DNA of 64,000 nucleotides, taken from an uncultured Gammaproteobacteria bacterium (GTDB lineage Bacteria > Patescibacteriota > Microgenomatia > 2-02-FULL-39-11). Positions within the stretch are counted from its first letter, which is position 1; each line of letters starts with the position of its first letter. The notes beneath the pieces are model-generated. The model did no database searches. It was not told the DNA's origin and worked only from the letters and a program-made list of their open reading frames with translations. The stretch spans positions 70,567-134,566 of the forward strand of contig CAYGXQ010000001.1 of assembly GCA_964354025.1 (NCBI GenBank). The letters run 5' to 3'. This document shows, piece after piece, positions 12,239-52,277 of this stretch. Made by a program: the position numbers and the translations under genes.

Positions 12239-13008
12239 ACCAGGTGTGTATTAGCTTGACATATACGGGAAACTGATATAAATTGTAGTCATGCCGTACC
12301 GTAAGACCGTATTTGCTTGCGGAGAATATTACCACATTTACAACAGAGGCGTTGCTTATCAGCCGATTTATAAAAATAAAAGGGATTATGAAAGATTTTT
12401 ATTAACGCTTTCATATTACCGATTTCGGGACTGCCCGGTCAGACTTTCAAAATTATTGCTGACTCCTAAAGAAATCAGAGACGATATATTATCAGCCTTA
12501 GCTAAAGACAATAGTAAAAGAATAGAAATTCTTGCATATTGTCTTATGCCAAATCATTTTCATTTGCTTATTCAGCAAATCAAAGAAGGTGGAATATCAA
12601 AATATCTGCGTCAGTCAATAAATAGTTATGCAAAATACTTTAATACGAAATACAAAAGAGTAGGATCTCTTTTTCAGGATATGTTTAAGGCTGTCCGGAT
12701 AGAATCAGATGAGCAGCTTATACATGTTTCGCGATATATTCACCTTAATCCACTCGTTTCCTATTTGGTCAATCGAGAGGAACTACCCGAGTATCCTTGG
12801 TCATCACTGCAATCATATTTGGGAAAATCTGACTCTGATTTGGTAGTCGCGGAAACTGTTTTGGCCAATTTTAAAAACAAAAAGGAGTATATGCAATTTA
12901 TACTTGATCAGGAAGATTACGGAAAAAAGTTAGAACATATTAAACATCTTATGCTTGACGGAACATAATAATCCGTATGTGCAAACGTAATACACACCTG
13001 GTGTGTAT
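12233..13008 (+). mobile_element. HUH Y1 transposase gene (RAYT/IS200-like) flanked by inverted copies of a 19-bp palindrome
   Basis: atacacaccAGGtgtgtat at 12233-12251 and its reverse complement atacacaccTGGtgtgtat at 12990-13008 bracket the CDS. Confidence 0.7.
12291..12968 (+). CDS. REP-associated tyrosine transposase-like HUH endonuclease (Y1 transposase fold)
   Basis: HUH motif NHFHLLIQ and catalytic Tyr context SRYIHLNPL (compare RAYT YIHYNP). Own promoter TTGACA 12256-12261, ATAAAT about 12278-12283. Confidence 0.75.
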   Translation: MPYRKTVFACGEYYHIYNRGVAYQPIYKNKRDYERFLLTLSYYRFRDCPVRLSKLLLTPKEIRDDILSALAKDNSKRIEILAYCLMPNHFHLLIQQIKEGGISKYLRQSINSYAKYFNTKYKRVGSLFQDMFKAVRIESDEQLIHVSRYIHLNPLVSYLVNREELPEYPWSSLQSYLGKSDSDLVVAETVLANFKNKKEYMQFILDQEDYGKKLEHIKHLMLDGT

Positions 13009-18990: not shown

Positions 18991-19060
18991 TGTCATTGCG
19001 AGCAAAGCGAAGCAATCCCATCCGAGATTGCCACGGCTACTTCGTAGCCTCGCAATGACA
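18991..19060. repeat. family-1 structured repeat with 12-bp perfect terminal inverted repeats
   Basis: tgtcattgcgag ... ctcgcaatgaca. The internal segment cgaagcgaagcaatcccatccgagattgc occurs inverted in the copy at 32483-32557. Confidence 0.7.
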
Positions 19061-22066: not shown

Positions 22067-25063
22067 ATGGATCAAAAGAAGTTAAATAAGGAACAGCTTG
22101 AGGCGATCCGTCACTGGAAAGGCCCGCTTCTGGTGATTGCCGGCGCGGGGACGGGTAAAACAACGGTTATAACCGAGCGGATCAAATGGCTGATTGCCGA
22201 AGGCCTGGCCAAACCAGCCGAAATTCTGGCTTTGACTTTTACCGATAAAGCGGCTCGGGAAATGGAAGAACGGGTTGACCGGGCGCTTCCTTACGGTTAT
22301 ACCCAAATGTGGATTACCACTTTTCATTCATTTGGGGAGCGGGTTTTACGGCAGGAAGCGATCCAGATAGGTTTGAATCCGGGATACCGGCTCATGGCTG
22401 AGGCGGAGAGTATCATTTTTTTCCGCAAAAACCTCTTTAAATTTAACCTGAATTATTTCCGGCCAATGGGAAATCCGAACAAGTTTATTTCCGGTATGCT
22501 GCAGCATTTTACCAGGTTTAAAGATGAAGACATATCACCTAAAGAATATTTTAATTGGGCGAAATTAAACAATGAAACAACCCGCCAGCCGGCGAGGCAG
22601 GTGAAACAATTGAACAATGAGGAAAAAACTATTGAGAGTGAAAAATATATGGAACTGTCTGATGCTTTTCAAAAGTATGAAGAACTGAAAGTCAAAGAAG
22701 GTTTGATGGATTTTTCCGACCTGATAACTAACACTCTAAATCTTTTCCGGTTAAGGAAAAATATTTTGAAAAATTATCAGGAGCAGTTTAAGTATGTCTT
22801 GATTGATGAATTCCAGGACACAAATTTTGCCCAAAATGAACTGGCGGTTCTTCTGGCCGGAAACAGAAAAAACATAACGGTCGTCGGGGACGATGATCAG
22901 GCGATTTACCGATGGCGCGGCGCGGCTGTTTCCAATATTATCCAATTCCGGCAAAAATTCCCGGAGGCAAAGCCGGTGGTTTTGACGAAAAATTACCGTT
23001 CCACCACTGAAATTCTTGACCGGTCATATGACCTTATCCAAAACAACAATCCAGACCGGTTGGAAGTAAAAGAGAAAATTAATAAAAAACTAGAAAGCCA
23101 AAGAGGGATAAAAGGAGAAAAAATAGAATTGATTTATGAAAAGAGAGTGGAAGATGAAGCGGAAAAAGTAGCTAAACAAATTACAAATTATAAATTACAA
23201 ATTACAAATGACGAAGGGAAAGAATTATACAGTTGGAAAGATTTTGCCATTTTGGTTCGGGCCAACAGTCAGGCAGAACCGTTTGCCAGGGCACTATCCC
23301 GGGCCGGTATCCCTCACCAGTTTTTAGGACCGGGCATGCTTTTTAGGCAGTCTGAAGTCAAAGACCTGATCGCTTACCTTAAATTACTCGACGACTTCAC
23401 TGATTCGGTGGCCTTTTTCCGGGTTGTCACAATGCCGGTTTTTGGGATAAACACCCGGGATATTTATGCCGTCAATAATTTTGCCAAAAGAGTCGGGCTT
23501 TCCTTATTTGAAGCAGTTGAGGTGGTGGTGGCGTTTTTCTTAGGCGATGAAGGACATTGGAGCCGGATGAAAAATTACCAGAATTACCTGCCGTATACAG
23601 GCGAAACTACCAAAGAAAAACTGACCAAGATAATGAAAATGATCAACCGGCATTTGGATTTGGCCAGAAAAGAAACCGCCGGTCAGGTTCTCTACTACTT
23701 TCTGGAAGACAGCGGCATTTTGAAAGAACTGGTTGAGTACAAGACGGTCAAAGAGGAAAAGACCGCCTTAAATATCTCGAAATTTTTCGACAAGCTGAAG
23801 ACTTTTGAGACGGAACACGAAGAAGCAAATGTAGCGGCGGTGGTTGATTGGATTGAAATGGCGATGGAACTGGGTGAAAGTCCCCTGGCGGCGGATACTG
23901 ACTGGTCACAAAATGACGCGGTAAATATCCTGACAGTCCATTCGGCTAAAGGATTGGAGTTTCCGGTGGTCTTTTTAGTCAATCTGGTTAACCAGCGTTT
24001 TCCGACAGTTGAGCGGCATGAACAAATTCCCATCCCTGATGAGCTGGTGAAGGAGATATTGCCGGAAGGGGATTATCATCTGGAGGAGGAAAGACGGCTG
24101 TTTTACGTAGGTATGACCAGGGCCCGCGACCGGCTGATTTTGACCGCGGCCAATTTCTACGGAGAGGGCAAAAGAGAAAGGAAGATCTCGCAGTTTGTGA
24201 TGGAAACGTTGGGAGAGAAGAACATCAATAATTTAACAATTCAACCCTTCGACTTCGCTCAGGGTAAGCAATTGACTCTTTTAGAATGGAAAAAAACTGA
24301 AGAATTACCGGCCAAAACTATTAAACAACCCATCGAATATCTTTCTTATTCCCAAATTGAGAGTTTCACGACCTGTCCGCTGCAGTATAAATACCGCTAT
24401 ATCATCAGAATTCCGGCCCCTCCTTCGGCCGCCGGCTCTTTCGGAACATCCATCCATCTGACTTTGCAGAAATTTTACGAGCGGGTTAAAAGAGGCGAGC
24501 GGCCGCAAAAAGAGGATTTATTGCAGATATTGGATGAGGTCTGGCTGCCGGTCGGTTACGGTTCGAAACAATATGAAGAGAAAATGAAGACCAGAGGCCG
24601 CGACATGCTTCAGGCTTTTTTTGAGAAATTTTACGATCCCGACAAAAAGCCAAAAAGCCTGGAGCAGATTTTTAAGATAAAGCTGACACCGACTCTTAAA
24701 ATCGGCGGCAAAATCGACCGGGTGGATGAGACGCCTGACGGAAAGTTGGAAATTATCGATTACAAAACCGGCAAACGTCCCACCGATAAGGCCATCGCCG
24801 AAAACCTGCAGATGACGGTTTACGCGCTGGCCGCCTGCGACTCCGGTATTTACAACAGACGGCCGGAAGAAGTGGTTCTTTCTTTTTATTTTTTTGACGC
24901 CCGGGAGAAAGTAACTTCGACTAGGACAAAAGAACAGTTGGAAGAAGCCAAGAAAAAACTCCTGGAAAAAGCCCAAGATATTGCATCAAGCGATTTCTCT
25001 CCAAAAGTGGGCAAATGGTGCGATTTTTGCGATTTCCGCCTCATCTGTGAAGCCTGGCAATAA
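22067..25063 (+). CDS. UvrD/PcrA-family helicase fused to a C-terminal PD-(D/E)xK (RecB/Cas4-type) nuclease domain with Cys cluster
   Basis: Walker A GAGTGKTT, DEFQDT, VTLTKNYRS, C-terminal YSQIESFTTCPLQYKYRY...IDYKTGK...CDFCDFRLICEAW. Two in-frame repeat insertions at 23175-23212 and 24243-24264. Confidence 0.85.
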   Translation: MDQKKLNKEQLEAIRHWKGPLLVIAGAGTGKTTVITERIKWLIAEGLAKPAEILALTFTDKAAREMEERVDRALPYGYTQMWITTFHSFGERVLRQEAIQIGLNPGYRLMAEAESIIFFRKNLFKFNLNYFRPMGNPNKFISGMLQHFTRFKDEDISPKEYFNWAKLNNETTRQPARQVKQLNNEEKTIESEKYMELSDAFQKYEELKVKEGLMDFSDLITNTLNLFRLRKNILKNYQEQFKYVLIDEFQDTNFAQNELAVLLAGNRKNITVVGDDDQAIYRWRGAAVSNIIQFRQKFPEAKPVVLTKNYRSTTEILDRSYDLIQNNNPDRLEVKEKINKKLESQRGIKGEKIELIYEKRVEDEAEKVAKQITNYKLQITNDEGKELYSWKDFAILVRANSQAEPFARALSRAGIPHQFLGPGMLFRQSEVKDLIAYLKLLDDFTDSVAFFRVVTMPVFGINTRDIYAVNNFAKRVGLSLFEAVEVVVAFFLGDEGHWSRMKNYQNYLPYTGETTKEKLTKIMKMINRHLDLARKETAGQVLYYFLEDSGILKELVEYKTVKEEKTALNISKFFDKLKTFETEHEEANVAAVVDWIEMAMELGESPLAADTDWSQNDAVNILTVHSAKGLEFPVVFLVNLVNQRFPTVERHEQIPIPDELVKEILPEGDYHLEEERRLFYVGMTRARDRLILTAANFYGEGKRERKISQFVMETLGEKNINNLTIQPFDFAQGKQLTLLEWKKTEELPAKTIKQPIEYLSYSQIESFTTCPLQYKYRYIIRIPAPPSAAGSFGTSIHLTLQKFYERVKRGERPQKEDLLQILDEVWLPVGYGSKQYEEKMKTRGRDMLQAFFEKFYDPDKKPKSLEQIFKIKLTPTLKIGGKIDRVDETPDGKLEIIDYKTGKRPTDKAIAENLQMTVYALAACDSGIYNRRPEEVVLSFYFFDAREKVTSTRTKEQLEEAKKKLLEKAQDIASSDFSPKVGKWCDFCDFRLICEAWQ

Positions 25064-25090: not shown

Positions 25091-26230
25091 ATGGTTCCAG
25101 ATCAGATCAAAAAATTTCCCAAACCGCTCATTATCCTGCTGGCAATAATATTCTTTTTCATTGTTTGGCTTATCGCGATAAACATAAAACCGGCCGGTAA
25201 TCAGCCGGCAATTACCTCACGAATTACACCCTCTGCGTTTTTGACGGCGGTCCCGACTAAAACAACCGCGGACAAATCGGAAATTGCCCAAAAAGCCATC
25301 AATTGGCTTAACCTGCAAAAATCCCCGGACGGAGTCTATTATTTGAACCGGATAGTTTTACCAAACCAGCCAACATTACCGCCGACGGAGGATAAGCGGA
25401 TCGGAATAAATGTACTCTGGGGGAAATATAAATATTGGCAAAAAACAAAAGACCCAAAGATACCGGCTGAATTGTCAGAAGAGTTAAATACTCTGTCAGA
25501 TGAAAAACTGACCCGTCTTTTCCAGCCTGATTTTTGGAGTTGCCGGTTTTTATACGAAATCTGGACGGATAAGGATATCGGGCAGGAGATGAAAGACCAA
25601 GCGGACAGTTTATGTTCAAGAGCAAGTTTTGCCATCCCGTCCGCCGGTGAGTTGTCAACCTATCAGGAGAAAGAGACAAATTTACCATCTGTATTTTCCC
25701 CAAGTATAGACAAAATCACTTTGTCTGCCAAAGAAGAGATTGATTTGGGAAAGAAGTCTTACCAATATCCCGCCTTTGCTTCGGATTTTGCCGCCAAATA
25801 CTTATGGCATGGTAGAGTTAACGACCTGCAGACCGCCAAAGCACTTTTTAATCTGACAGTGGAGATTTACCAAAAACAATTGCGATCCGGAGTGATCCGC
25901 AATGAGTGTGTTCTGGGTATGGCTTCGCTTGATTTATACCGGCAGACAAATGACATGAAATATCTTATCTTTGCCGGAGATATTTTCAAAAATGATATTT
26001 TGGCCGGAAAGAGAAGTCTTTTCAGAAAAATTGCCTGTTATCTTTTCGTCGAAGAATTAGATACCGTCAGTCCGGAGATGAAATATGCCAATTTCGAAAA
26101 TAAACTGCTGGAAAATATCCTGTCGGAAAATTATGACCCCGTTTCCGGCGCGTTTTTCAGCGATATCGAAGATATCCGGCTTTATGAAACAAGAGATAAC
26201 GCTCTGATGCTGAAAATTTTATCTGAATAA
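25091..26230 (+). CDS. TM-anchored extracytoplasmic protein, cassette component A1 (paralog of 27192-28511)
   Basis: N-terminal TM. Motifs shared with the paralog: WLNLQKSPDGVYY/WLNMQKDEKGLYS, YWQKTKD/YWKKTKD, FWSCRFLYEIWTDK/FWHCKLFYEIWNDK, ECVLGMASLD/ECLLGIASLD. Confidence 0.6.
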   Translation: MVPDQIKKFPKPLIILLAIIFFFIVWLIAINIKPAGNQPAITSRITPSAFLTAVPTKTTADKSEIAQKAINWLNLQKSPDGVYYLNRIVLPNQPTLPPTEDKRIGINVLWGKYKYWQKTKDPKIPAELSEELNTLSDEKLTRLFQPDFWSCRFLYEIWTDKDIGQEMKDQADSLCSRASFAIPSAGELSTYQEKETNLPSVFSPSIDKITLSAKEEIDLGKKSYQYPAFASDFAAKYLWHGRVNDLQTAKALFNLTVEIYQKQLRSGVIRNECVLGMASLDLYRQTNDMKYLIFAGDIFKNDILAGKRSLFRKIACYLFVEELDTVSPEMKYANFENKLLENILSENYDPVSGAFFSDIEDIRLYETRDNALMLKILSE

Positions 26231-26234
26231 TATT

Positions 26235-27125
26235 ATGAAAAGAAATAATCTTTTTTGGGCTGTCAGCCTGTCTGTTATCCTGATCTTTTCTTTTACCCCC
26301 AAGAATGTTTTTGCCGACAACAGAACGGAGTGTGAAAGCTCGTCAAGCGATCCCAGCTGCGGACCGTGTGATTACAGCGATTCATGGGACGGCAAAAATC
26401 CGAACGGTGAATGTCACGCCGGCTGTTGGGACAATTCCGTTCCTTATGAATATCCGGGTCCCAAAAGAATGTGTACTTTTGAATGTACCTACTGCAATAA
26501 CGGCAATACCTGCGCTTATCCAATATCCGGTACTCCGCCGGTTCCCACCTCAATGCCCGGTACGCCTGTCCCTACCGTGGGTCCCTGTACTTGCGAAAAA
26601 GTAGACGTGGAAGGGATAATCGGCGCCGGCCAGACGATCACCCTGACCACTTATGCCCGTTCGCTTGACCCGGCCAAAAACAAAATTAACAGTATGATTT
26701 ATCATGTTGAGCAAAACGGTCAGGAGATTACCCATTCTGAACCAATCAGCGCCATTGAAGTAACCGGAGAACCCGGCCGGTATTACACCAACTGGACTTA
26801 TACCATTCCCTCAGACGGTATCGGTACGGTTGATTACCGGATTTGGGTAGATATCTTATGCGCTTATAAAACCGCCGCCAGCCAGAGTCAGACTGCGGTC
26901 CTGGGAATAGGGACAACCATCAAAATCGGCATCTTTGATCCCCTGGTCGGATTAATTCAATCAATTTTCACTCCCAAAAACGGCCAACCCGCCCCTTCTC
27001 TTGACACTAATCCGGATTCCTACACCATCCTCAGGCCTACCAGAGTGAATACCCTGCAATTGGGGACGTTTTATCCAACCCTTAAAAAAGGCTGTCATGA
27101 AATCAGTTTTTCCATCCATTTCTGA
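26235..27125 (+). CDS. secreted Cys-rich protein, cassette component B1 (paralog of 28504-30858)
   Basis: Signal peptide; N-terminal domain of about 60 aa with 10 Cys; C-terminal domain SMIYHV...YTIPS...GTVDY shared with B2. Confidence 0.6.
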   Translation: MKRNNLFWAVSLSVILIFSFTPKNVFADNRTECESSSSDPSCGPCDYSDSWDGKNPNGECHAGCWDNSVPYEYPGPKRMCTFECTYCNNGNTCAYPISGTPPVPTSMPGTPVPTVGPCTCEKVDVEGIIGAGQTITLTTYARSLDPAKNKINSMIYHVEQNGQEITHSEPISAIEVTGEPGRYYTNWTYTIPSDGIGTVDYRIWVDILCAYKTAASQSQTAVLGIGTTIKIGIFDPLVGLIQSIFTPKNGQPAPSLDTNPDSYTILRPTRVNTLQLGTFYPTLKKGCHEISFSIHF

Positions 27126-27191: not shown

Positions 27192-28511
27192 ATGGATAAA
27201 AAGAAGATTTTGATTACCGCAGTTATAGTATTAATGGCAATTATCGCCATCGTTGCTATTTTTCTCTCCAAAAAAAATCAGCCGGGACAACCAGTCAGCT
27301 GCAATCTGCAAAATTGTCCTTCCGGCTGCTGCGCGGATGACAAATGCCAGACCCAGGGATCAATTTTTGCCGGCTACTTATGTTTGGGTGCCAATAACTG
27401 GCAGACGCCTGGTCGGCAAGTGGTGACTGGTGCGCCAAAAGAAGTCGCGGCAGAAGTGAAAAAGAATGCCGAAACGGATAAAATCTCTCCCAATCCTGCT
27501 TCGCAAAGAATAGAAATGGCCAAAAAAACGCTTGACTGGTTAAATATGCAGAAAGATGAAAAGGGCTTGTATTCCCTTTACCAAATCGTCCGTGCGAACG
27601 GTGAAGTGGTACCTTATATTACCGACAGCCGGGAAGTGATTGACGTCGTCCTGGCAAGATATGCATACTGGAAAAAGACAAAAGACACAAAGACACTGGA
27701 TCTGTTAAAACAGGATCTGGATGTACTAGGTGATGAGAAAAAACTGCCGCAGTTGATGCCTGAATTTTGGCATTGCAAGCTATTTTACGAAATCTGGAAT
27801 GATAAGCTTATGCCTGGGGATTTGAAAGATAAAGCCAAAGCCAGTTGCGCAAGAAGTATGACCTCCGGTTATCCTGATGTGGACCTTAAATCGATTTTAT
27901 CGGATACAATAACGGTGACTCCTTTTCCGGAAAAATCAATTCAGGAACTTGAGTCAGCCTTAAATAAACCGGAGAAGAATATTACTTTATCACCGCAGGA
28001 GGAGGAAGAACTCCAGCAGAAATATCCGAAATATGCCGCTTACGTTTCCGATTTCCTTAATAAATACCAATGGGAAAAAAAGAACCAGGATCTGGAAGCG
28101 GCCAAAACGTTTTTCAGCTACGCTTTAGACGCCTACAAGAGAGCGGAAGAGGCGGCAGTAATACCGCAAAAAGAATGCCTGTTGGGGATTGCTTCGCTTG
28201 ATTTTTTCAAAACGACTGCCGATGACAAATACCGCTCGTTTGCGCAAAAATTATGGGAAAAAATCTCAATCTCACCAAAAGGATCGCTTTTCTCACAAGC
28301 TACCTGCGCTATTTTTACCAATGAGATAAATACAATCACCCCTGATAAAAAATACGGTGATTTCCTGAAAAACTTGACTGATGAGATTATAAAAAATAAC
28401 CATGAAATAAATTCCGGCGCTTTCTTTTATAAAAGCAATGGAAGTATTATCAAAGAGATCAGGGATAATTGTCTCTTGGTGAAGGTTTTATCGGATTCTG
28501 ATAGTGAGTAG
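27192..28511 (+). CDS. TM-anchored extracytoplasmic protein, cassette component A2, with extra Cys-rich N-terminal segment
   Basis: Paralogous to A1 (see motifs there) plus CNLQNCPSGCCADDKCQTQG near the membrane anchor. Confidence 0.6.
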   Translation: MDKKKILITAVIVLMAIIAIVAIFLSKKNQPGQPVSCNLQNCPSGCCADDKCQTQGSIFAGYLCLGANNWQTPGRQVVTGAPKEVAAEVKKNAETDKISPNPASQRIEMAKKTLDWLNMQKDEKGLYSLYQIVRANGEVVPYITDSREVIDVVLARYAYWKKTKDTKTLDLLKQDLDVLGDEKKLPQLMPEFWHCKLFYEIWNDKLMPGDLKDKAKASCARSMTSGYPDVDLKSILSDTITVTPFPEKSIQELESALNKPEKNITLSPQEEEELQQKYPKYAAYVSDFLNKYQWEKKNQDLEAAKTFFSYALDAYKRAEEAAVIPQKECLLGIASLDFFKTTADDKYRSFAQKLWEKISISPKGSLFSQATCAIFTNEINTITPDKKYGDFLKNLTDEIIKNNHEINSGAFFYKSNGSIIKEIRDNCLLVKVLSDSDSE

Positions 28512-30858
28512 TATGAAAAGATTTTTTTATACAATATTTCTTGCCATTATCCTTTTGGGGATTTTTTATTCCTTTAAAAATAGCGCATATGCTGTAGATT
28601 GTTCGATTCTCAGCTCAAATCCTGCTTGCGGTAAATGTGTTATAGATCCATGGTCTGGGAGTGGTGCTTGTATGAAACAGTGTAATCCTGGTGCGATTAC
28701 GTGTTCCGGTAAGGAAGATCTGAATTCCTGCTGGTGGAGATGTAATGCAGCTGAAGGGGGATGTGATAATCCCTACCAATGCTGTTATCCGCCGAGTCCC
28801 ACTCCGACTAATTCACCACCCTCCTGTAACAGCCTGACTGTCCAGCCGGTTACCGTGATGCCTGGAGAGTCGATTACCCTAAAAGCAAACGTCGGCGAAT
28901 TGAACGGCTCGGTTACGAAAGTGGATTTTTATTACGGATTAGTATCGGAAATAGACGGAGGGGCGGCGGTCAATCCTCCAGGCGGTAACTGGCATCCTTT
29001 AGGCAGTGTGTCATCCAGTCAACCGACAATCCCCTTTGCTCCTTTGGTCACGCCGAATGTTAAAACAGGTAAAAGTTGTGACCAGATTTGTCAGGGATAT
29101 CAGGGCAGGTCCTGTTTGTCAGTTGGTACTGATACCGGGGGAACAAACGGGAGCGTGACGAAATTTAATAGTACTGGGAGTGAAGACGGCAGTTGTGATT
29201 CACAAACGGGCGGATGGGCAAGAGAGAAATGCAATGTAGCGATGAATGCTCATGGACAAATGCCTTGCGACTGGACAAATTGCCGCTGTTCGGATTGGCC
29301 GACTTTAACTACATTTACGGATGTTTCTTGGACCGGAACTTTTCCGGGAACAGGAGGAGCCTATTATTTCATCGCCAATGTCTTTGACGCTCAGGGCCTG
29401 TTTTGTTCCGGCAATCCTAAAAAACCGGCTGACGTAAAAGGATGTTCAGCCTGTATGTTGCAAACAACCGTGGTGACGCCATCACCGACTCCCAGTGAGT
29501 CTCCGACGCCTTCAGCAACACCTACATCTACCCCTACTTCTACTCCTACCCCGACACCTCTTGGATGCGGCAATCCCTGCAGCCCGGACAATAACGAATG
29601 TCCCGAAGAATGTCCATTTTGTCCGGTAGATAATTCCTTTTGCGTCGGTCCAAGTTCCACGCCCACTCCCACCCAAGTTCCTTGTAACGGCCCCTGTACT
29701 AACAGCAATGAATGTGATATAAACTGTCCTCTTTGTTCAACTGATCATACCTGTAGGGTACCTTGTGGTGATCTGTGCACCAACAGCAACGAATGCGATC
29801 TGTCCTGTCCGATTTGTACGGCTGATAACAAATGTTTGGCAGCCAGTCCGACTCCCACTAAAGTCCCCTGTACCCAACCATGTACCAATAGCCTAGAATG
29901 CGATATCAACTGTCCTCTTTGTTCAACTGATCATACCTGTAGGGTACCTTGTGGTGATCTGTGCACCAACAGCAACGAATGCGATCTGTCCTGTCCGATT
30001 TGTACGGCTGATAACAAATGTTTGGCAGCCAGTCCGACACCGACAGCTACACCGATTCCTCCGACAGCTACACCGACAGCGACTGTCACTCCGACACCGG
30101 AGCCATACTGCCTTTGCGATAGTATGGAATATACAGGATCTCCGGTACCGGGTGGGACAATGAGTTTCACTACCTGGGGTAGGATACCGGATTATGCCCA
30201 CAATAATTCAGGCATCCAGAGTATGATTTATCGGGTTTGGAACGGAAGACCGGAATCGCAATCTGTGCCTCCGGATGCAGCCGGACCCGTCACTGTACCA
30301 GCCCAAGGTCCGGTAACCGTCGGTGCTGATTACCGGTATTCGACGACTTGGAATTGGCAAATTCCGAGTACCGTGCCGACTTCCGGTTATGTCGATTATT
30401 ATTTCAACGCGGAAATCAAGTGTGTCAGACCAAGATCGACAGCGGATAGCGGCAGTAATCTGGTTCAGGCAAACACGGCGGTGCTGGGTACAACCGAGGA
30501 AAAAAGTCCCGGCTTTTTTGCCTCCATTCTTCGTTTCTTCGGTTCTCTTTTAGGAATTTCTCCATCTGTGGTTACTCCTTCACCGCTAGTACCTACTCCT
30601 ACCTCCTCTGCCCGGCTTGTTCCGCTGGCCGCCGAAGCACTTTCGCCTACACCTACCCAGGTCATGCTTCCTCCTTCTCCCACAATGGGAATGGGAGGGT
30701 ATTGCGCCAGTACTGTTCTTGCACCATCAGGAGTCCATAGCGATCAACTAGGCACTTTTACTCCCAATTGCGCCTGTCCTACCCCAGCAATTATCAAAAC
30801 ATGTACCTGGACAGTCTTAAGAATATATTACGGTGATGATTGTGTGAAGACACCGTAA
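28504..30858 (+). CDS. large secreted Cys-rich modular surface protein, cassette component B2
   Basis: Signal peptide; N-terminal Cys-rich domain homologous to B1; Pro/Thr linkers; five CxxxxECxxxCPxC modules; C-terminal domain homologous to B1. Confidence 0.6.
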   Translation: MSSMKRFFYTIFLAIILLGIFYSFKNSAYAVDCSILSSNPACGKCVIDPWSGSGACMKQCNPGAITCSGKEDLNSCWWRCNAAEGGCDNPYQCCYPPSPTPTNSPPSCNSLTVQPVTVMPGESITLKANVGELNGSVTKVDFYYGLVSEIDGGAAVNPPGGNWHPLGSVSSSQPTIPFAPLVTPNVKTGKSCDQICQGYQGRSCLSVGTDTGGTNGSVTKFNSTGSEDGSCDSQTGGWAREKCNVAMNAHGQMPCDWTNCRCSDWPTLTTFTDVSWTGTFPGTGGAYYFIANVFDAQGLFCSGNPKKPADVKGCSACMLQTTVVTPSPTPSESPTPSATPTSTPTSTPTPTPLGCGNPCSPDNNECPEECPFCPVDNSFCVGPSSTPTPTQVPCNGPCTNSNECDINCPLCSTDHTCRVPCGDLCTNSNECDLSCPICTADNKCLAASPTPTKVPCTQPCTNSLECDINCPLCSTDHTCRVPCGDLCTNSNECDLSCPICTADNKCLAASPTPTATPIPPTATPTATVTPTPEPYCLCDSMEYTGSPVPGGTMSFTTWGRIPDYAHNNSGIQSMIYRVWNGRPESQSVPPDAAGPVTVPAQGPVTVGADYRYSTTWNWQIPSTVPTSGYVDYYFNAEIKCVRPRSTADSGSNLVQANTAVLGTTEEKSPGFFASILRFFGSLLGISPSVVTPSPLVPTPTSSARLVPLAAEALSPTPTQVMLPPSPTMGMGGYCASTVLAPSGVHSDQLGTFTPNCACPTPAIIKTCTWTVLRIYYGDDCVKTP
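29677..30048 (+). repeat. tandem direct duplication of a 186-bp unit (62 aa, two Cys modules) inside B2
   Basis: 29722-29852 is 100% identical to 29908-30038 (131 bp); the upstream parts of the units are about 80% identical. Confidence 0.85.
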
Positions 30859-30913: not shown

Positions 30914-31228
30914 TTATTTATCCCGGATTTTGAGAGAAGCGAAACTGGTGATTCCTCCAAGAGTCAAGATGCCGCTGATTCCCAAAAGCAATAATGAGTT
31001 TTCCATATTTCCGGATACCGGCGGTTGGGGAGTGGCTGTGGGGCGGGGAGTCGAAGTGGGTGGTGGAGTATTGGTTGGTGCCGTAACGGGTGTACTGGTG
31101 GGGGCACAAGTGATACCGGGAATGGTCGTATCGCAGATGGGGCCGAAGGTATCCTGGGCAAAGACACTCCTTTTGGGAAGCAAAATGACTAAGACAAGAA
31201 TAAAATAGGATAATAATCGGGAATTCAT
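30914..31228 (-). CDS. small secreted Pro/Thr-rich peptide with C-terminal TM and basic tail (cell-surface anchor-like)
   Basis: Signal peptide MNSRLLSYFILVLVILLPKRSVFAQD, CDTTIPGITC, PT-rich linker, LLLLGISGILTLGGITSFASL then KIRDK. Confidence 0.45.
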   Translation of the reverse strand: MNSRLLSYFILVLVILLPKRSVFAQDTFGPICDTTIPGITCAPTSTPVTAPTNTPPPTSTPRPTATPQPPVSGNMENSLLLLGISGILTLGGITSFASLKIRDK

Positions 31229-31301
31229 CCTAAATCCATTGTGATGGATTATTTTTTGGGTGTCAAGTGGAAAGTTTTATGTTAAGATAAAAATTATAGA
31301 T

Positions 31302-31757
31302 ATGAAAAAAAAGCTGATCATCTTAATCGGTCTTATTATTTTAATTTTTATAGCAAAAATGACCGGTTTTAACGGGAAATATTTTTTTAAGTCTTTAGAA
31401 TTTTTACAGGATAATAGAAGTTACTCCGATTCCGGTATTTCCGCTTCAGAACCGACAAAGGTAACAGAAATAAACATCACAAAATGGGCAATCTCGCCGG
31501 AGTCATTGGCCAAATGTCTGGCTGAACGGCGTTTTAAGATGTACGGGACTGATACCTGCAGTTCGTGTAAGATGCAGAAAGAATTTTTCGGCGACAGTTT
31601 TCAGCTGATAAATTATGTGAACTGCGAAACGGAAAAAACTTTGTGTGACGCCAAAGGTCTGCATGCTTTTCCCGTTTGGGAAGACGACACCGGTAAGCAA
31701 TATAAAGGAGCGATAGAATTATCAGTTTTGGCCAATTTAACCGGTTGCGACAAATAA
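31302..31757 (+). CDS. membrane-anchored thioredoxin-fold protein with CxxC (CSSC)
   Basis: N-terminal TM, YGTDTCSSCKMQKEFFG, conserved distal Cys; immediately upstream of the ccdA-like gene. Confidence 0.5.
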   Translation: MKKKLIILIGLIILIFIAKMTGFNGKYFFKSLEFLQDNRSYSDSGISASEPTKVTEINITKWAISPESLAKCLAERRFKMYGTDTCSSCKMQKEFFGDSFQLINYVNCETEKTLCDAKGLHAFPVWEDDTGKQYKGAIELSVLANLTGCDK

Positions 31758-31760
31758 ATT

Positions 31761-32582
31761 ATGATTACCTCCGGTAATTTAATCGGCGCTTTTTTGGCAG
31801 GATTGACGTCCTTTTTTGCCCCGTGTCTGCTGCCGCTTTTTCCCTCTTACTTTTCCGCCGTCTCCGGCTTTACTTTTGCCCAGTTGTACGGACTGGATTT
31901 CGGCAAAATCAGGTTACGGGTCTTTGTCTCCAGTCTTTTTTTCTCGGCCGGATTTGCGATCGTTTTCACGGCTTTGGGAGCCACCGGTTCCCTTGTCGGA
32001 CAACTTCTGGAGAAGTACCTGCCGTATCTTTTGAGGCTAAGCGGGATATTTTTGATACTATTGGGTCTTGTACAACTGGGAATAATCAAAATTCCCTCTT
32101 TTGAATTTGACTATGCTTGGAAAATGCAGAAAAAAATGGCCGGTCTCGGGTTCTTAACCTCTTTGGTAACCGGGATTGCCGCCGCGCTGTCTTGGATTCC
32201 CTGTATCGGGCCGCTTTTGTCTCCGATCCTTTTGCTTTCTGCAGAAAGCGAGACGGTGTTTTCCGGCAGTTTACTTTTATTTATTTTTTCCCTGGGACTG
32301 ACGGTACCGTTTTTGGCCGGCGGATTATTTTTCCCGGCCGTAGTCAATCTTCTTCAGGGTCATAGGCAGCTGTTTCACCGGATTTCACAGCTGGCGGGAA
32401 TATTTATTATCATCCTCGGGATATTATTACTCGCAGATAAATATCAGTTATTGATAAAATTATTTGAAGGGATAGTTTTATCTGTCATTGCGAGTCCCGA
32501 TGTCACATCGGGACGCGGCAATCTCGGATGGGATTGCTTCGCTTCGCTCACAATGACATATAAACATAAATTCATTATATAA
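31761..32582 (+). CDS. ccdA: CcdA/DsbD-family transmembrane thiol-disulfide electron transporter
   Basis: Paired Cys motifs FAPCLLPL and WIPCIGPLL in TM helices. The last ~30 codons (VIASPDVTSGRGNLGWDCFASLTMT...) are read through a family-1 repeat and are probably not native. Confidence 0.75.
   Translation: MITSGNLIGAFLAGLTSFFAPCLLPLFPSYFSAVSGFTFAQLYGLDFGKIRLRVFVSSLFFSAGFAIVFTALGATGSLVGQLLEKYLPYLLRLSGIFLILLGLVQLGIIKIPSFEFDYAWKMQKKMAGLGFLTSLVTGIAAALSWIPCIGPLLSPILLLSAESETVFSGSLLLFIFSLGLTVPFLAGGLFFPAVVNLLQGHRQLFHRISQLAGIFIIILGILLLADKYQLLIKLFEGIVLSVIASPDVTSGRGNLGWDCFASLTMTYKHKFII
32483..32557. repeat. family-1 structured repeat with near-perfect 12-bp TIRs
   Basis: tgtcattgcgag ... ctcacaatgaca. 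Central module is the reverse complement of the central module of the 18991 copy. Confidence 0.7.
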
Positions 32583-32590: not shown

Positions 32591-33484
32591 TCATTTGAGG
32601 AAATTTTCCAAGAAGATAATTTTCTTTCCGCCAAAGCCTTCTTTGAATTTTGTAAATCCTTTCCAGGTAAGTGAAGCTTTGGGAAAACGGTCGTCGCAGA
32701 TGCCTTCAAAATCAAAAATCCGACAGCTTTTTCTTTTCGCTGTTCTCAGAGCTTCCCAAACCAAAAGAGTCGGCGCAAAAAGCTTTTTACCTTCCTTCAA
32801 AGCAGAAGCATACCAATAGTAGGCAACTTTATCATACATAAGCAGTAATATTCCGGCCAGGGGTTTCTCATTATTGATAGAAGCGATCGTTTGCATCCGC
32901 GTCAGGGGTTGACTTTTCATTGTTGGATAGGCCAACAGTAAAGCAGCGTGTCGTGGATGGAAATTTTTCCAGAGCATTTTCATTTCTTTGGTGATAAGAA
33001 AACCAATTAGTTTATATTGCTGCTTACGGACTTTGATAAAGGCTTCAAGATCGTTGGATTCTTTGACTGTAATTCCGTTTTTAACTGCCCGGCGGACACC
33101 TCTTCTTTTGGCTTCGGTAAAACTGTTAAATATTGTTTCTTCTTTTTGGGTCAGGTCTATCCGGATAGTGGTGGTGGGATTGAAAGGCGAATGTTCAATT
33201 TTAAAACCGCTACTTAATAATTTCCTTCTATAAAGTTCGGCATTTTTATCCTGAACAAGGAGATATGGGGCGATTTTCAGGCGGAAGATTATGTATTGTT
33301 TGTACAAATATTTTATTTGATTAAGAGAAAAATTTTTGTCCGGCCGGGGAATTTTGGCGAAATGGCCAAACAAAGGGAATTTTTTCAGATAGATATAAGC
33401 GGAACCTATTTTCGCCACCTGCCAGTTGAGATCTCTCATAAAAGCAGCAAATTGAGGTGATTGACGGATGTCTGTCATAATCAA
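32591..33484 (-). CDS. FemAB-family peptidoglycan branch aminoacyltransferase
   Basis: About 300 aa GNAT-like FemX/FemAB pattern (YIYLKKFPLFGHFAKIP ... LLMYDKVAYYWYASALKEG...). Confidence 0.6.
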   Translation of the reverse strand: MIMTDIRQSPQFAAFMRDLNWQVAKIGSAYIYLKKFPLFGHFAKIPRPDKNFSLNQIKYLYKQYIIFRLKIAPYLLVQDKNAELYRRKLLSSGFKIEHSPFNPTTTIRIDLTQKEETIFNSFTEAKRRGVRRAVKNGITVKESNDLEAFIKVRKQQYKLIGFLITKEMKMLWKNFHPRHAALLLAYPTMKSQPLTRMQTIASINNEKPLAGILLLMYDKVAYYWYASALKEGKKLFAPTLLVWEALRTAKRKSCRIFDFEGICDDRFPKASLTWKGFTKFKEGFGGKKIIFLENFLK

Positions 33485-33489: not shown

Positions 33490-33534
33490 GGAATAGCGCA
33501 CTTTAGTGCGCGCGCAGACTAAAGTCTGCTATTA
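33490..33534. repeat. family-2 double-hairpin repeat
   Basis: aatagcgcacTTTAgtgcgc gcgcagacTAAAgtctgctatt. Confidence 0.65.
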
Positions 33535-35052
33535 CTTTTTATTTAAATTTTGAATTTTAATCATTATCTCTTTTAACTTTTCCTTCTCTCCCGTTTTTTC
33601 ATAAAGGTCAGCCAACGCATAATAACTGAAAATGAAAGTCGGATCCAGAGCGATTGCCTTTTGATATTCTTCCTCGGCTTCCTTATATTTCCCCTGTTCC
33701 TTATAGATATTGGCCAGGTTGTGGTGAGTATTGGGATAAACATCCGATAAAGCAATCAGATTTTTATATTCGGCTATCGCCAGATCCGTTTGTTTGTTTT
33801 CCGCGTAGGCCATAGCCAGATTATTGCGCATGGGAATATGCCAGGAAGATTGAGTCAGGCTTTTGGTATAAAAAGTGATCGGGTCGCGCCAGTCGTTATT
33901 GCGGATGATAGTCTTAATAATCAGAAGACTGAAGACGGTCAGACAGAAGACGGATAGAATTATCCGGTGATTACGATTGGAGAATTTCTGCCAGAGAAAT
34001 ATGAAAATAGAAGCAACCAGAAGAAAGAAACCGATTGAGGGGAGATACAGATAATGCTCGGAGGCAATACTGTTGATCGGGATAATGCCGCAAACTGGCA
34101 GGATGGTCAAGAAAAACCAGCCGGAGGAAAAAAAGAGGATTTTATTCTTTGTTTTATATATTAAAAAAAGAAGGCCAATGGTGATTAATAAAAACATTAT
34201 CACGGCCGGATTTACGGGAGAAGAAACATAAGTTATATTTCTGGCAAAAATCAGCTCTTTCGGGAAAAGAAGCAGCTGGAGATATTGGAAAAAAGCTTGA
34301 GGAAAAGTCAGCAATCTGACGAAAAGATTTTGGCTATAAAGATTACCAGTCTGGTAGAAGTTCAGGGTGTTGCCGAAATTCAGGACCGTCAGCCGAAGAA
34401 ATATATAGACAAAATCGATACCCAAAAAGACAACAGTTATTATAGACAATTTTTTATGAGAGTATTTACCTGTTTTATCGATTAGTAATATTAAAATCAG
34501 TAAAAAAGGCAAAATGACAGCCGTTTCTTTGGAAAGAAGCGCCAAAATAAAAAAAACAGTAGCGGGTAAAATATTTTTTCTTAAGGAGAAAAGGAGAGAC
34601 AGAAGGACAAAAAAAGAGCAAAGGAGATCGGTCCGGCCGGACGCGTAAGCGACGGCTTCCGTTTGGACCGGGTGGATGATAAATAACAAAGCAGTGACGG
34701 AAGCCAGGATTTTTCGCTTAAATAGACATTGGATAAGAAGAAAAACCAAAAAGGCATTTGCCGCGTGAAGAAAGATACTGGTCAGGTGATAGCCCAAAGG
34801 ATTTACGTTCCAGATGGTATGATCAATGGCAAAAGAAAGAAGGAGAACAGGACGGTACATATTGCTGGTTTTACCCGCCCCGGCCACCATATTTTCGGAA
34901 AAATATTTCGGCCAATATCGAAGGTCAGCGACGTAAGCATTTTTGTAGATCAGCTCTTCATCGTCATAAAAAAGTTTATTATTTAGGATATTGTGATAAC
35001 AGAGGAAGGTAACGAGTAAAAAAAATATCCCGATAAATAAATTATTTCTCAT
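33532..35052 (-). CDS. polytopic membrane protein with C-terminal TPR repeats (TMTC/PMT_2-like GT-C candidate)
   Basis: N-terminal multi-TM region with an early YDDEE loop, C-terminal TPR units (AIAEYKNLIALSD...AEEEYQKAIALDP...). Confidence 0.55.
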   Translation of the reverse strand: MRNNLFIGIFFLLVTFLCYHNILNNKLFYDDEELIYKNAYVADLRYWPKYFSENMVAGAGKTSNMYRPVLLLSFAIDHTIWNVNPLGYHLTSIFLHAANAFLVFLLIQCLFKRKILASVTALLFIIHPVQTEAVAYASGRTDLLCSFFVLLSLLFSLRKNILPATVFFILALLSKETAVILPFLLILILLIDKTGKYSHKKLSIITVVFLGIDFVYIFLRLTVLNFGNTLNFYQTGNLYSQNLFVRLLTFPQAFFQYLQLLLFPKELIFARNITYVSSPVNPAVIMFLLITIGLLFLIYKTKNKILFFSSGWFFLTILPVCGIIPINSIASEHYLYLPSIGFFLLVASIFIFLWQKFSNRNHRIILSVFCLTVFSLLIIKTIIRNNDWRDPITFYTKSLTQSSWHIPMRNNLAMAYAENKQTDLAIAEYKNLIALSDVYPNTHHNLANIYKEQGKYKEAEEEYQKAIALDPTFIFSYYALADLYEKTGEKEKLKEIMIKIQNLNKK

Positions 35053-35053: not shown

Positions 35054-36079
35054 CTATAAGTTACTTTTAATTCTAAGGAAGAGATTTCTCATTCGATGAC
35101 CAAGGTTGTAGAAACGATAAAGAACCGGATCGATGATCAGATCGTAACTGCCGATAAATTCGACCGGTTTGGGAGAAAAGCCCATCTTAAACCGGTGGAA
35201 TCCAAACCAGGGGTCAGCCGGGTTTGGTTCGGGACCCAGCGCCCCCCACATGTCAAAAATTTTGGCTCCTTTTTTTTGGCCGAAACGGATTATTTCCCAC
35301 ATAAGAAGCGTAGAAGCCATGGTATTTCTGAACCGGTCACTTGAAGCGCCATACGGATAGTACAAAACACCGTTGAAAAGAAAAACAATCCAGGAGGCCA
35401 GAATATGTTTCTGCCCTTCATGAGAATAGGTGGCGGTAAAAAGGTGGGCCATACCGCTTTTTTTCAAGGTTTCCCACATCAGACGGTGATATTTTTCGTC
35501 GTGGGCGTAGAATTTTTGCCTTCTGGTGGTTTCAAAAGTCAGTTTTAAATAATTTTCAAAAGCTTCAGGAGAATCATCTTCGGCAATTACCACTCCGTGT
35601 TTTTGGGCGACTTTGATGTTGTACCGGGTTTTGGGATGCATATTCTTTAATAGATCTTCCTCACTTTTGGTCAGGTTGAGCTGAAGAGTGTATTTGGTGA
35701 AGAGTGGATGAGATGAATTTAGAATTATGAATCTAGAATTATGAATTAAGGATTGTGATTGGGTATTAGTAATAACATTTGGTTCTAATTTTATAAATAT
35801 ACAATGGTGTTTCTTCCCCACACAATATAACTCTTCTAACATTTCGTGGGAAGGAATATGACCTTTGGGGAAATAGCCGATGGTTTTTTTGATAAACGGA
35901 ATAGGATGGAGGGTGATCTGGGCGGTTTCCGCCAATTTATTATTGATATAATTGCCCAGGCGGATTTCTTCCAAACCTGTTTTTCGGCGAAAATCCCCCC
36001 ATTCCCATGACTGAAGGGGGTGGAGAGCCAGATAGTTAAAGGCTTCTTTATCTTCGATGGTAACTGGTTTGATACTCAT
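35054..36079 (-). CDS. FemAB-family peptidoglycan branch aminoacyltransferase (second paralog)
   Basis: FemAB-like length and pattern (LLMWEIIRFGQKKGAKIFDMWG...). Start set at MSIKPVTIEDK because the upstream extension translates the palindrome pair. Confidence 0.55.
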   Translation of the reverse strand: MSIKPVTIEDKEAFNYLALHPLQSWEWGDFRRKTGLEEIRLGNYINNKLAETAQITLHPIPFIKKTIGYFPKGHIPSHEMLEELYCVGKKHHCIFIKLEPNVITNTQSQSLIHNSRFIILNSSHPLFTKYTLQLNLTKSEEDLLKNMHPKTRYNIKVAQKHGVVIAEDDSPEAFENYLKLTFETTRRQKFYAHDEKYHRLMWETLKKSGMAHLFTATYSHEGQKHILASWIVFLFNGVLYYPYGASSDRFRNTMASTLLMWEIIRFGQKKGAKIFDMWGALGPEPNPADPWFGFHRFKMGFSPKPVEFIGSYDLIIDPVLYRFYNLGHRMRNLFLRIKSNL

Positions 36080-36097
36080 AGTATATCTTGTTCTCTT

Positions 36098-36130
36098 CAC
36101 ACCGGGTGTGTGCAGCACACACCCGGTGTG
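36098..36130. repeat. pair of CACACC-N-GGTGTG palindromes in inverted orientation
   Basis: cacaccGggtgtg (36098-36110) and cacaccCggtgtg (36117-36129); same core as the palindromes flanking the Y1 transposase gene. Confidence 0.7.
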
Positions 36131-40654: not shown

Positions 40655-40978
40655 GTGAACGTAATTAACAGTGAAACAGATCAAATAATCGAAAGAATAA
40701 TTCAACACTGCCAACCGGAAAAAATTATTCTTTTTGGTTCAGTCGCCAGAAATGAGATTAAAGAGAACTCTGACATCGACCTTTTAATCATCAAGGAAAG
40801 TGATAAAAAGAGGCCGTTCAGAGTAAAAGAAATATTCAAAGCTTTAAGAGGCATGGTGAGAAATTATCCTTTAGATGCAATTGTATATACGCCTGAAGAA
40901 TTGGATAAACGTATTCTGATAGGAGATTACTTTATAAAAAGAATATTGAGTGAGGGAAAGACTGTCTATGGCGACTGA
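40655..40978 (+). CDS. minimal nucleotidyltransferase (MNT) antitoxin-type protein
   Basis: ILFGSVARNEIKENSDIDLLII (GS...DxD). Confidence 0.75.
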   Translation: MNVINSETDQIIERIIQHCQPEKIILFGSVARNEIKENSDIDLLIIKESDKKRPFRVKEIFKALRGMVRNYPLDAIVYTPEELDKRILIGDYFIKRILSEGKTVYGD

Positions 40979-41366
40979 CAAACAAGTTCTTGCCAAGGAG
41001 TGGTTTGATGCGGCGATAAGCGATTACCGGTATGCGGAAATAGGTCTTAAGGAAAATCAGATTTATCCCCAGATTGCCTTTCTGTCTCAACAGGTGGCGG
41101 AGAAACTTCTTAAAGGATTTCTGATACTTCATGACGTTGAACCTCCAAGAATTCATGAATTACCTAAGCTTCTGGATGAATGTGTGAAAATAGATTCTTC
41201 TCTTGATTCTCTTCGTGACGCTTGTGAGTCGTTAACAGGGTTTTATACGGAAACCCGTTATCCACCGGATATCACCGATTATACAAAAGAAGAAATAACG
41301 GAAGCTTTCAATATGGCAAAACTCATCAAAGAGGAAATCGAGTCCATCCAAAACAAACCTCAATAA
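40968..41366 (+). CDS. HEPN-domain protein (toxin partner of the MNT)
   Basis: 4-nt overlap with the MNT gene; conserved TRYPP (R-x4-6-H-like HEPN region) and helical pattern. Confidence 0.65.
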   Translation: MATDKQVLAKEWFDAAISDYRYAEIGLKENQIYPQIAFLSQQVAEKLLKGFLILHDVEPPRIHELPKLLDECVKIDSSLDSLRDACESLTGFYTETRYPPDITDYTKEEITEAFNMAKLIKEEIESIQNKPQ

Positions 41367-42030: not shown

Positions 42031-42387
42031 TTAAATCAGTGTCCGTGTTTTATATTCAGCTAATCTACTTAAGGCGATTTTAATTTCCTTTATTGGAGTT
42101 TTTTGTTTTTTCTTTTTGAAAGCATGCAACAGTAAAAAAGTGGATTCTTTCACGGTCACGTAGAAAATACGGAGGTTGTCTTCTCCTAATATCCTTATTT
42201 CCCAAAGCGGTGTTCCGGTTAATTTTTTCACGTGGGGTTCCCGAATAGTCAGTCCGAACTCGGTTAACAACTGAAATGTGTTATAAACCTTGGAGATTGC
42301 TTTAGGTGGTAAACTTTCGATAAATTCATAAATTGGTGATGTTCCGGTTAAAGGAGAATAATATTTTATTTTCCAAGTGCCTGTCAT
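42031..42387 (-). CDS. higB: RelE/ParE-superfamily toxin, phage Gp49-like (HigB-type)
   Basis: PLWEIRILGEDNLRIFY...LLLHAFKKKKQKTP matches the Gp49-like toxin family pattern; toxin-first gene order. Confidence 0.65.
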   Translation of the reverse strand: MTGTWKIKYYSPLTGTSPIYEFIESLPPKAISKVYNTFQLLTEFGLTIREPHVKKLTGTPLWEIRILGEDNLRIFYVTVKESTFLLLHAFKKKKQKTPIKEIKIALSRLAEYKTRTLI

Positions 42388-52275: not shown

Positions 52276-52277
52276 AA

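Follow-up and report, generated by a model that had tools for sequence, protein, structure and literature searches.

Membrane proteins of the CcdA/DsbD family accept electrons from cytoplasmic thioredoxin and pass these, via two cysteines located in the membrane, to a thioredoxin-fold acceptor that faces outward. The subject of this analysis is a locus of this kind from a Microgenomates bacterium. Microgenomates belong to the candidate phyla radiation (CPR, or Patescibacteria), whose members are believed to grow in attachment to other cells and encode many unannotated surface proteins. The locus lies in a stretch of 64,000 nucleotides of contig CAYGXQ010000001.1 (in its entirety referred to as the window; all positions are counted from its first nucleotide) and comprises three genes: one for a membrane-anchored thioredoxin-like (Trx-like) protein (31302–31757, plus strand); the gene ccdA (31761–32582, plus strand), which starts 4 nt past the stop codon of the Trx-like gene; and one for a surface peptide of 104 amino acids (30914–31228, minus strand). 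Beside them are genes for secreted proteins of exceptional cysteine content, here called the B family. The reading that we favor, with moderate confidence, is that the locus encodes an extracytoplasmic thiol–disulfide reductase unit, in which electrons would pass from cytoplasmic thioredoxin to CcdA, from CcdA to the CSSC site of the Trx-like protein, and from there to the surface proteins encoded in the same cluster.

The closest described systems are pairs of CcdA and a tethered Trx-fold protein with a CxxC motif, i.e., ResA/StoA with CcdA in Bacillus, and SdbB/Sgo_1177 with CcdA1/2 in Streptococcus. In Streptococcus gordonii, CcdA1/2 together with SdbB/Sgo_1177 supply MsrAB (PMC7034828). 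As in the window, a six-helix CcdA with two Pro-Cys (PC) motifs stands beside the tethered protein, and for those pairs and the window alike the presumed route of the electrons is outward, starting at cytoplasmic thioredoxin (PMC7034828). The window differs from the ResA, StoA, and SdbB pairs in that its Trx-like protein is of the type associated with VKOR and not of the TlpA/ResA type, has two extra disulfide pairs, and belongs to a group of domains that are usually fused to the N-terminus of CcdA. Furthermore, there is no cytochrome, sporulation or Msr client nearby; the conserved neighbors are a peptide with a cysteine loop and the B proteins.

A similar comparison can be made with DsbD/ScsB, the alpha-beta-gamma reductases of Gram-negative bacteria, and DsbC/DsbG. 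In relatives of the window unit, a DsbD_TM core and a Trx-fold domain are likewise present in one polypeptide, and it is plausible that the unit keeps a pathway of isomerization or repair for multi-disulfide proteins in the reduced state. Unlike DsbD, the unit has no Ig-like alpha domain, and its Trx-like domain is N-terminal (or separate) rather than C-terminal. Because the Trx-like domain precedes the first transmembrane (TM) helix of CcdA in the fusions, it is placed where DsbD has its periplasmic alpha domain. In contrast to the hosts of DsbD/ScsB, however, the bacterium of the window lacks an outer membrane that would enclose a periplasm.

The Trx-like domain itself is most similar to that of the Synechococcus VKOR, with which it shares the CxxC motif, the cis-Pro, and an extra Cys pair. 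Here the partner is CcdA and not VKOR, and CSSC or CSAC takes the place of CPHC at the active site; therefore, a supply line in the opposite (reducing) direction is implied. A small partner for a DsbD-type transporter also has a precedent, by analogy: there are DsbD gene clusters that include a Trx-like protein and a small secreted CXC protein, DUF4266, which has been proposed to undergo redox cycling (PMC8238504). Those clusters differ from the window, which has no flavinylation components and whose peptide has an N-terminal C-x6-8-C loop, a stalk rich in Pro and Thr (PT), and an LPXTG-like anchor; the peptide and eight homologues had no match to PF14086 (DUF4266) in Pfam at E ≤ 10. The peptide resembles LPXTG sortase substrates of Gram-positive bacteria in having an N-terminal signal peptide and, at the C-terminus, a pentapeptide, a hydrophobic segment, and a basic tail, a type of signal which unrelated surface proteins of the same genome also carry. 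It differs from them in its motif, [LPI][PLM]x[AST]G, in which Thr is rare and which the curated models do not match, and in that no cognate sortase was seen in the window.

No description of such a unit (Trx-CcdA, peptide, and B proteins) in CPR bacteria was found in the literature searched. Thus, a VKOR-type Trx-like domain re-wired to CcdA, a Cys-loop peptide with an LPXTG-like anchor, and variable Cys-rich surface proteins form a new combination, undescribed in that literature, and the locus defines a conserved three-part unit: Trx-like–CcdA, the Cys-loop peptide, and the hypervariable Cys-rich B proteins. The unit bears on the question of how CPR bacteria, which have no periplasm, no quinones, and no respiratory chain, manage to fold proteins that contain dozens of disulfides and to keep them intact. 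For disulfide biochemists, it offers a domain architecture that is new and, in the peptide, a candidate for a minimal redox partner; for CPR biologists, a candidate sorting signal ([LPI][PL]x[AST]G) and a handle on the maturation of surface proteins.

The Trx-Like Protein and CcdA

An earlier note, made from the sequence of the window alone, had predicted a Trx-fold protein, a CcdA transporter, and a 104-aa peptide, and all three genes are present where it placed them. The interval that it gave ends at 32480, which falls 102 nt before the stop codon of ccdA (32582).

The identity of CcdA is unambiguous. The protein matches the Pfam family DsbD_TM (PF02683) with 59.5 bits (cut-off 27.1; E = 3.8e-16) over profile positions 6–215 of 219, and matches the Thermus CcdA structure 5vkv with E = 6e-21. 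Its redox-active Pro-Cys motifs in TM1 and TM4, FAPCLLPL and WIPCIGP, from which the transporter had been recognized, align with LSPCVLPL and WTPCIGP of 5vkv. The NCBIfam DsbD model NF001419 gives 45.5 bits for the window CcdA and 39–56 bits for its fused relatives (cut-off 330); only the TM core matches DsbD, far under the cut-off, and no NCBIfam model covers the fusion architecture.

The last ~100 nt of the ccdA reading frame consist of a palindromic repeat element of ~70 bp (32484–32557), which stands in place of the C-terminus of close relatives. The element (consensus GTCATTGCGAG...CTC[GA]CAATGAC) has a second copy in the window at 18992–19059, has a predicted RNA fold of −38.9 kcal/mol (z = −6.5), and extends CcdA by a tail of 38 aa, which is not found in the relatives L001 and L002 (L-numbers denote related loci). 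CcdA of close relatives is 244 aa in length and is free of the element.

The 151-aa product of the Trx-like gene in the public database (P0001) begins at the ATG at 31302, not at the in-frame GTG at 31260. Scans of Pfam and NCBIfam gave no match for this protein, even at E ≤ 10. Its best match, by sequence and by structure alike, is to the Synechococcus VKOR, in the Trx-like domain (3kp8/3kp9), with 31% identity, a phmmer E of 2.3e-6, and, for the AlphaFold model against 3kp8, a TM-score of 0.83, a root-mean-square deviation of 1.5 Å over 90 columns, and a Foldseek E of 2.6e-7. The model, computed from an alignment of 80 sequences, has an N-terminal helix (residues 2–20) which serves as TM anchor, then a flexible linker of ~45 aa with low confidence, then the Trx fold, with pLDDT >95 over residues 66–150. 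The active-site CSSC (residues 86–89) opens the helix of residues 87–102, and the cis-Pro, P124, is invariant among the 80 sequences. Six Cys have been kept across the family, i.e., the CxxC motif and two further pairs. Thus, the protein is a membrane-anchored Trx fold of the VKOR-associated type, a feature that had escaped the earlier note, in which the anchor, the fold, and the CSSC site were correctly described. A VKOR membrane domain is neither fused nor adjacent to the gene and no VKOR is encoded in the window; the partner is CcdA.

Members of the family that are linked to CcdA have CSSC, CSAC, CGAC, CHAC or CAAC at the active site, and never the CPHC of members linked to VKOR or DsbB, a contrast to be read with the caveat that the pattern used in scanning metagenomes favored C[SGP][AS]C. 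We take dipeptides of the CS[SA]C type to be similar to that of the DsbD gamma domain, CVAC. The dipeptide can serve only in part as a clean marker for linkage to CcdA: there are CSAC members with no CcdA nearby, and the scan was biased.

Linkage of the Trx-Like Domain to CcdA in Relatives

When 1.84 billion representative proteins were searched with the Trx-like protein by an index-free method, 1970 relatives were recovered, most of which are anchored single domains of 115–170 aa, with some tandem arrays and VKOR fusions. Four of the top 25 matches are Trx-like–CcdA fusions, in which the CcdA part is closely similar to that of the window. A word-index search with the Trx-like protein returned only four proteins and, with a wider alignment (alignment A1), short stand-alone members only and no fusions.

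Scans of genomes and metagenomes with an alignment of the Trx-like subfamily (the five-sequence alignment A2) yielded 71 loci, which were grouped into lineages at 90% identity of the Trx domain. Close homologues are annotated as Candidatus Microgenomates, and related loci occur in Gottesmanbacteria and other CPR genomes. In nearly all loci in which the Trx domain is at least ~43% identical to that of the window, this domain is fused to CcdA or encoded directly before it; the sole exception is L048, a contig of 1.8 kb. Among the 23 linked lineages (<90% identity to each other), 17 have a single fused polypeptide of 344–426 aa, in the order anchor, Trx-like domain, CcdA, and the remaining 6 have split, adjacent genes. 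Thus, relatives normally make one protein of the two, the split genes of the window being the less common arrangement, and the description of the pair as a module for reducing equivalents is borne out by its relatives. The distant members of the family in cyanobacteria are VKOR fusions.

In three of the split lineages, a gene for a conserved multi-pass membrane protein of ~100 aa, without a family match, lies between the Trx-like gene and ccdA (L042, 375–677; L046, 7252–7554; L078, 7147–7452).

The Cys-Loop Peptide

The peptide gene is convergent with the B2 gene and divergent from the Trx-like gene, from which it is separated by a spacer of 73 bp. The AlphaFold model of the peptide shows no folded domain, but only the helix of the signal peptide and one at the C-terminus (residues 76–103), with disorder in the PT-rich part between them. 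Its parts are, in order, the signal peptide, the loop QDTFGPIC-x8-C, the PT-rich stalk, PPVSG followed by NMEN, the TM helix, and KIRDK; the signal peptide is probably cleaved after VFA. The peptide had no match in Pfam or NCBIfam even at E ≤ 10, nor had eight homologues in Pfam at the same threshold. A match to EF0750_LPXTG (E = 0.033) was under the cut-off and was regarded as compositional; the tag PF27998, “ArabinogalactanP (weak)”, on some homologues reflects their PT-rich composition. A profile search with the homologues found 32 further clusters and, because it is conserved across ~32 protein clusters, the peptide can be accepted as the product of a real gene.

All members of the peptide family have the same five-part layout: a signal peptide ending in A-x-A; a nearly invariant start of the mature chain, Q-(D/EP)-TFGP[ITV]C[DE]...(T)C-x-P; a PT-rich linker of highly variable length; the pentapeptide [LPI][PLM]x[AST]G; and, last, a hydrophobic helix with a basic tail. 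The two Cys are spaced C-x6-C in 30 of 37 sequences and have eight residues between them in the window copy. The pentapeptide is LPRAG in 10 members, LLRAG in 8, PPVSG in 4, and PPRAG in 3, and also occurs as IPVTG, IPVSG, and IPDSG. The mature N-terminus is near-invariant, whereas the Trx domains of the same loci are only ~45–57% identical to that of the window.

Of the 14 lineages with usable upstream sequence that were scored from the Trx side, 10 have the peptide gene: divergent and 3–121 bp upstream of Trx-CcdA in the window group, L027, L028, L030, L031, L033, L035, and L040; and ~3.2 kb upstream in L005 and L036. Counted from the peptide side, all six members that were looked up adjoin a DsbD_TM gene, five of them beside a Trx-CcdA fusion and one beside genes for Trx, the 100-aa membrane protein, and CcdA. 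Wherever the peptide was found, its gene has Trx-CcdA beside it, a result with two biases of ascertainment: the patterns used in scanning came from the Trx-like subfamily, and a part of this evidence starts from loci that were found by their Trx domain. The peptide is the most tightly linked partner of Trx-CcdA. The earlier note had stressed the Cys-rich proteins in describing these linkages, and had missed both this tight association and the near-invariant loop with its two Cys.

The peptide gene is preceded by a near-consensus promoter-like site (31238–31266, minus strand), which consists of TTGACA, a 17-nt spacer, and CACAAT. With the end of the −10 element only 10 nt from the ATG, the mRNA is probably leaderless or nearly so. 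Blocks with the sequences TGTCAAG and ATTGTG have been kept in the spacer between the peptide and Trx genes in most of the related loci compared. A palindrome in this spacer, AATCCAT-TGTG-ATGGATT, was considered as an operator and rejected, as the blocks conserved across loci correspond to the −35 and −10 elements from which the peptide gene would be transcribed.

The Sorting-Like Signal of the Peptide

The C-terminus of the peptide is tripartite (PPVSG, the hydrophobic helix of residues 76–103, and KIRDK), and the same plan is found throughout the family. A signal of the same type ends a surface protein of 480 aa with fn3/Big_13 domains, encoded at 50034–51476 on the minus strand: GAPRSG, a hydrophobic stretch, and K. 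Orthologues of this protein end in APRSGNLETSLMFIG... in L031 (18598–19968) and L035 (18570–19943), and in LLRSGNN... in L040 (18795–20231). The form of the signal in these proteins, which are otherwise unrelated to the peptide, is [AL][PL]RSG, a hydrophobic stretch, and a basic tail. The residues that follow the Gly of the motif are also alike in the fn3 protein and the peptide (N-[LM]-E-x-S; the peptides have NMENSLLLLG in the window and HMETMLMFLG in L033). That a signal is common to unrelated surface proteins suggests that it behaves as a lineage-specific sorting signal.

Anchoring of the peptide to the cell wall, by cleavage at the LPXTG-like motif, is therefore plausible from the sequence of its C-terminus. 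The alternative is that the peptide is anchored only in the membrane, by its C-terminus, and is not a sortase substrate, the motif being merely the end of the PT linker. This is possible, although we are inclined to doubt it. It would agree with the window copy having PPVSG and not the canonical LPXTG; with the tails having no match to Gram_pos_anchor (PF00746) in Pfam, where the only hit, at E = 6.6 for P0182, is not significant, or to a sorting-signal model in NCBIfam (four tails); and with there being no sortase gene in the window, in which the non-shadow open reading frames (ORFs) of at least 110 aa and the 104-aa peptide were scanned with Pfam. However, the motif, the hydrophobic stretch, and the basic tail have been kept across the family while the linker varies freely, and the motif is LPRAG in the 10 members mentioned and IPVTG in one. 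Moreover, the same signal, including N-[LM]-E-x-S, ends the unrelated fn3 protein in the window, L031, L035, and L040, and a complete Microgenomates genome has been reported to encode a sortase (PMC7143001). Thus, the cell-wall-anchored stalk that had been proposed for the peptide has the expected architecture and a motif resembling LPXTG, whereas attachment by a sortase is a candidate mechanism for which neither the window nor a curated model supplies the enzyme or the signal.

The Cys-Rich B-Family Proteins

Two secreted B-family proteins are encoded upstream of the unit, on the plus strand: B1 (26235–27125; 296 aa, 13 Cys) and B2 (28504–30858; 784 aa). B2 had been estimated to contain more than 60 Cys, and the count is 61, i.e., 7.8% of its residues, in repeated 6-Cys modules joined by PT linkers. 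B1 and B2 have in common a C-terminal domain of ~180 aa, which starts with CxC[DE] after a PT linker, whereas their N-terminal parts are variable. A hidden Markov model of this domain matches only ORFs that are directly adjacent to, and convergent with, the peptide gene.

B-family genes occur in 9 of the 14 peptide-containing lineages with enough flanking sequence (the window group, L027, L031, L035, L040, L076, L077, L078, and L079), with three copies in L078. The outer contexts of these loci differ and include UvrD...FemAB–TPR–FemAB, TIM–LytR, and G6PDH neighborhoods. The B proteins with many Cys have 61, 46, 31, 28, and 25, and the others 10–18. In two lineages without a B gene, the unit is flanked by a Cys-rich secreted protein of another kind (of 850 aa and 48 Cys in one, of 334 aa and 24 Cys in the other), and L030, L080, and L081 have neither. 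The link of the Trx-CcdA unit to the B proteins is therefore supported statistically and is not obligatory; the tie to Cys-rich surface proteins that the earlier note had drawn holds in several genomic contexts, and not in every lineage.

In the window, each B gene is preceded on the plus strand by a gene for a membrane-anchored partner: A1 (25091–26230), which has no recognized fold, upstream of B1; and A2 (27192–28511), which has a Cys-rich N-terminal stretch, upstream of B2. It had been asked whether Trx-CcdA is syntenic with such A/B cassettes in relatives. This is so for the B part, whereas the A1/A2 family is mostly replaced, and a homologue of A2 was found only in L040. The gene before B encodes, in most lineages, a member of another partner family, of ~520–570 aa, with a signal peptide, the motif ESCF.YY.YG, a C-terminal TM helix, and a poly-basic tail (L027, 3221–4873; L031, 6269–7990; L076, 10351–11949; L077, 10142–11803; L078, 12266–13816).

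One B-family protein, in L035 (7238–9568, plus strand), has two Hint/intein-like N-terminal modules (CFLPGTK[IV]TM.DGTKKNIEE...) instead of Cys-rich repeats, which shows that N-terminal regions can be swapped as modules on a constant C-terminal domain.

Proposed Function and Alternatives

In the path that we favor, CcdA would take reducing equivalents from cytoplasmic thioredoxin, as judged from the known biochemistry of the CcdA/DsbD family; the two membrane-embedded cysteines of CcdA would then hand electrons to the CSSC site of the tethered Trx-like domain at the outer face of the membrane; and the Trx-like domain would reduce or shuffle the disulfides of the exported proteins that are encoded beside it. 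By analogy with the family, the flow of electrons in this unit would be outward. The transfer from CcdA to the Trx-like domain would be in keeping with their fusion in 17 of 23 lineages, which backs it indirectly. Because they are the products of conserved neighboring genes, the peptide and the B proteins are the best candidates for clients. The clients would be the Cys loop of the peptide, the B proteins or both, and the unit would act as a reductase or isomerase that proofreads surface proteins with many disulfides. Proofreading in the manner of DsbD–DsbC fits, because the B proteins are built from repeated 6-Cys modules.

The peptide may be a client, an adaptor or relay, or both. A bolder possibility, which we consider unlikely, is that it is a third redox component, with its loop held on a PT stalk that is tethered to the membrane or the wall and probably glycosylated, and that it relays reducing equivalents through the wall to distal B proteins. 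If this were true, a leashed loop of ~18 residues would be the functional analogue of the DsbD alpha domain in a cell without a periplasm, and the three parts together would make up a redox relay at the cell surface, known to date from Microgenomates alone.

Several points weigh against a reductase unit dedicated to the neighboring surface proteins. The closest solved relative of the Trx-like domain is the oxidizing partner of VKOR. In the Wolfebacteria lineage L015 (7182–9667), a gene for a DsbB-like membrane protein comes after that of a CPHC member of the family, and there is a separate CcdA on the other strand, paired with a TlpA/ResA-like protein, so that this one CPR locus appears to have both an oxidative and a reductive arm. 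There are many stand-alone CSAC Trx-like proteins without a CcdA within 10 kb. The peptide is not beside Trx-CcdA in 4 of the 14 lineages examined from the Trx side (L015, L043, L044, and L046), 5 of 14 lineages have no B-family gene, and some of the synteny with B (the window, L027, L031, L035, and L040) lies within one clade with a shared long-range gene order and could reflect descent rather than function. The first two of these points would be expected if the pathway were oxidative and DsbA-like, with the Trx-like domain putting disulfides into the Cys-rich proteins, which clearly need many of them, and with CcdA recycling it. Against this, CcdA and DsbD are generally known to move electrons outward, the reverse being thermodynamically uphill, and dipeptides of the CS[SA]C type replace CPHC in the members linked to CcdA; an oxidative role is quite improbable. 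The lineages without B genes, and the long-range synteny shared by several B-positive loci, would instead suit a housekeeping reductive pathway which provides electrons for extracytoplasmic repair or defense against oxidative stress, as CcdA and a Trx-like lipoprotein do for MsrAB in streptococci (PMC7034828), the B genes being neighbors merely by inherited gene order. However, in the loci with Pfam-annotated genes the unit has no Msr, peroxiredoxin or other redox enzyme as a neighbor, the Cys-loop peptide adjoins the unit wherever it was found, and loci of several different outer contexts have B genes next to the unit. We regard a general housekeeping role as unlikely.

CcdA was first described in cytochrome c maturation, and 5vkv is named “cytochrome c-type biogenesis protein CcdA”; a ResA/CcmG–CcdA pair that keeps the CxxCH of apocytochromes reduced would explain the presence of the transporter by itself, as the earlier note had pointed out. 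This is extremely improbable here. There is no ResB, ResC or Ccm protein in the window or in the annotated related loci, no CxxCH motif occurs in any of the 52 genes of the window, and CPR bacteria lack respiratory chains and cytochrome oxidases (PMC7143001). Other homologues of DsbA and DsbB, for which a search had been suggested, are also missing from the window: the Pfam scan described above found no Ccm/Res, VKOR, DsbB, DsbA, Msr or sortase in it, and the annotated related loci contained none of these either. Thus, the reductase unit acting on surface proteins encoded in the same cluster is the reading that we retain.

Other Genes in the Window

Directly downstream of ccdA there is a trio of genes on the minus strand, which encode a FemAB-like protein (32591–33484), a membrane protein with C-terminal TPR repeats (33532–35052), and a second FemAB-like protein (35054–36118). 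The trio has been kept in L027, L031, L035, and L040. FemAB enzymes make the cross-bridges of peptidoglycan, which are the usual acceptor for sortases. It may be speculated that the TPR membrane protein acts on PT-rich stalks and that the FemAB-like proteins relate to a sortase acceptor.

On the other side of the locus, a helicase–nuclease with UvrD and PD-(D/E)XK domains is encoded at 22067–25063. The gene for the fn3/Big_13 surface protein is adjoined by genes for PilO- and PilN-like proteins of type IV pilus assembly (51655–52832, minus strand). Elsewhere in the window there are mobile or toxin–antitoxin-like elements: an IS200-like Y1 transposase (12291–12968, plus strand), a HEPN-domain protein (40950–41366, plus strand), and a toxin-type gene of the Gp49-like family (DUF891; 42031–42387, minus strand).

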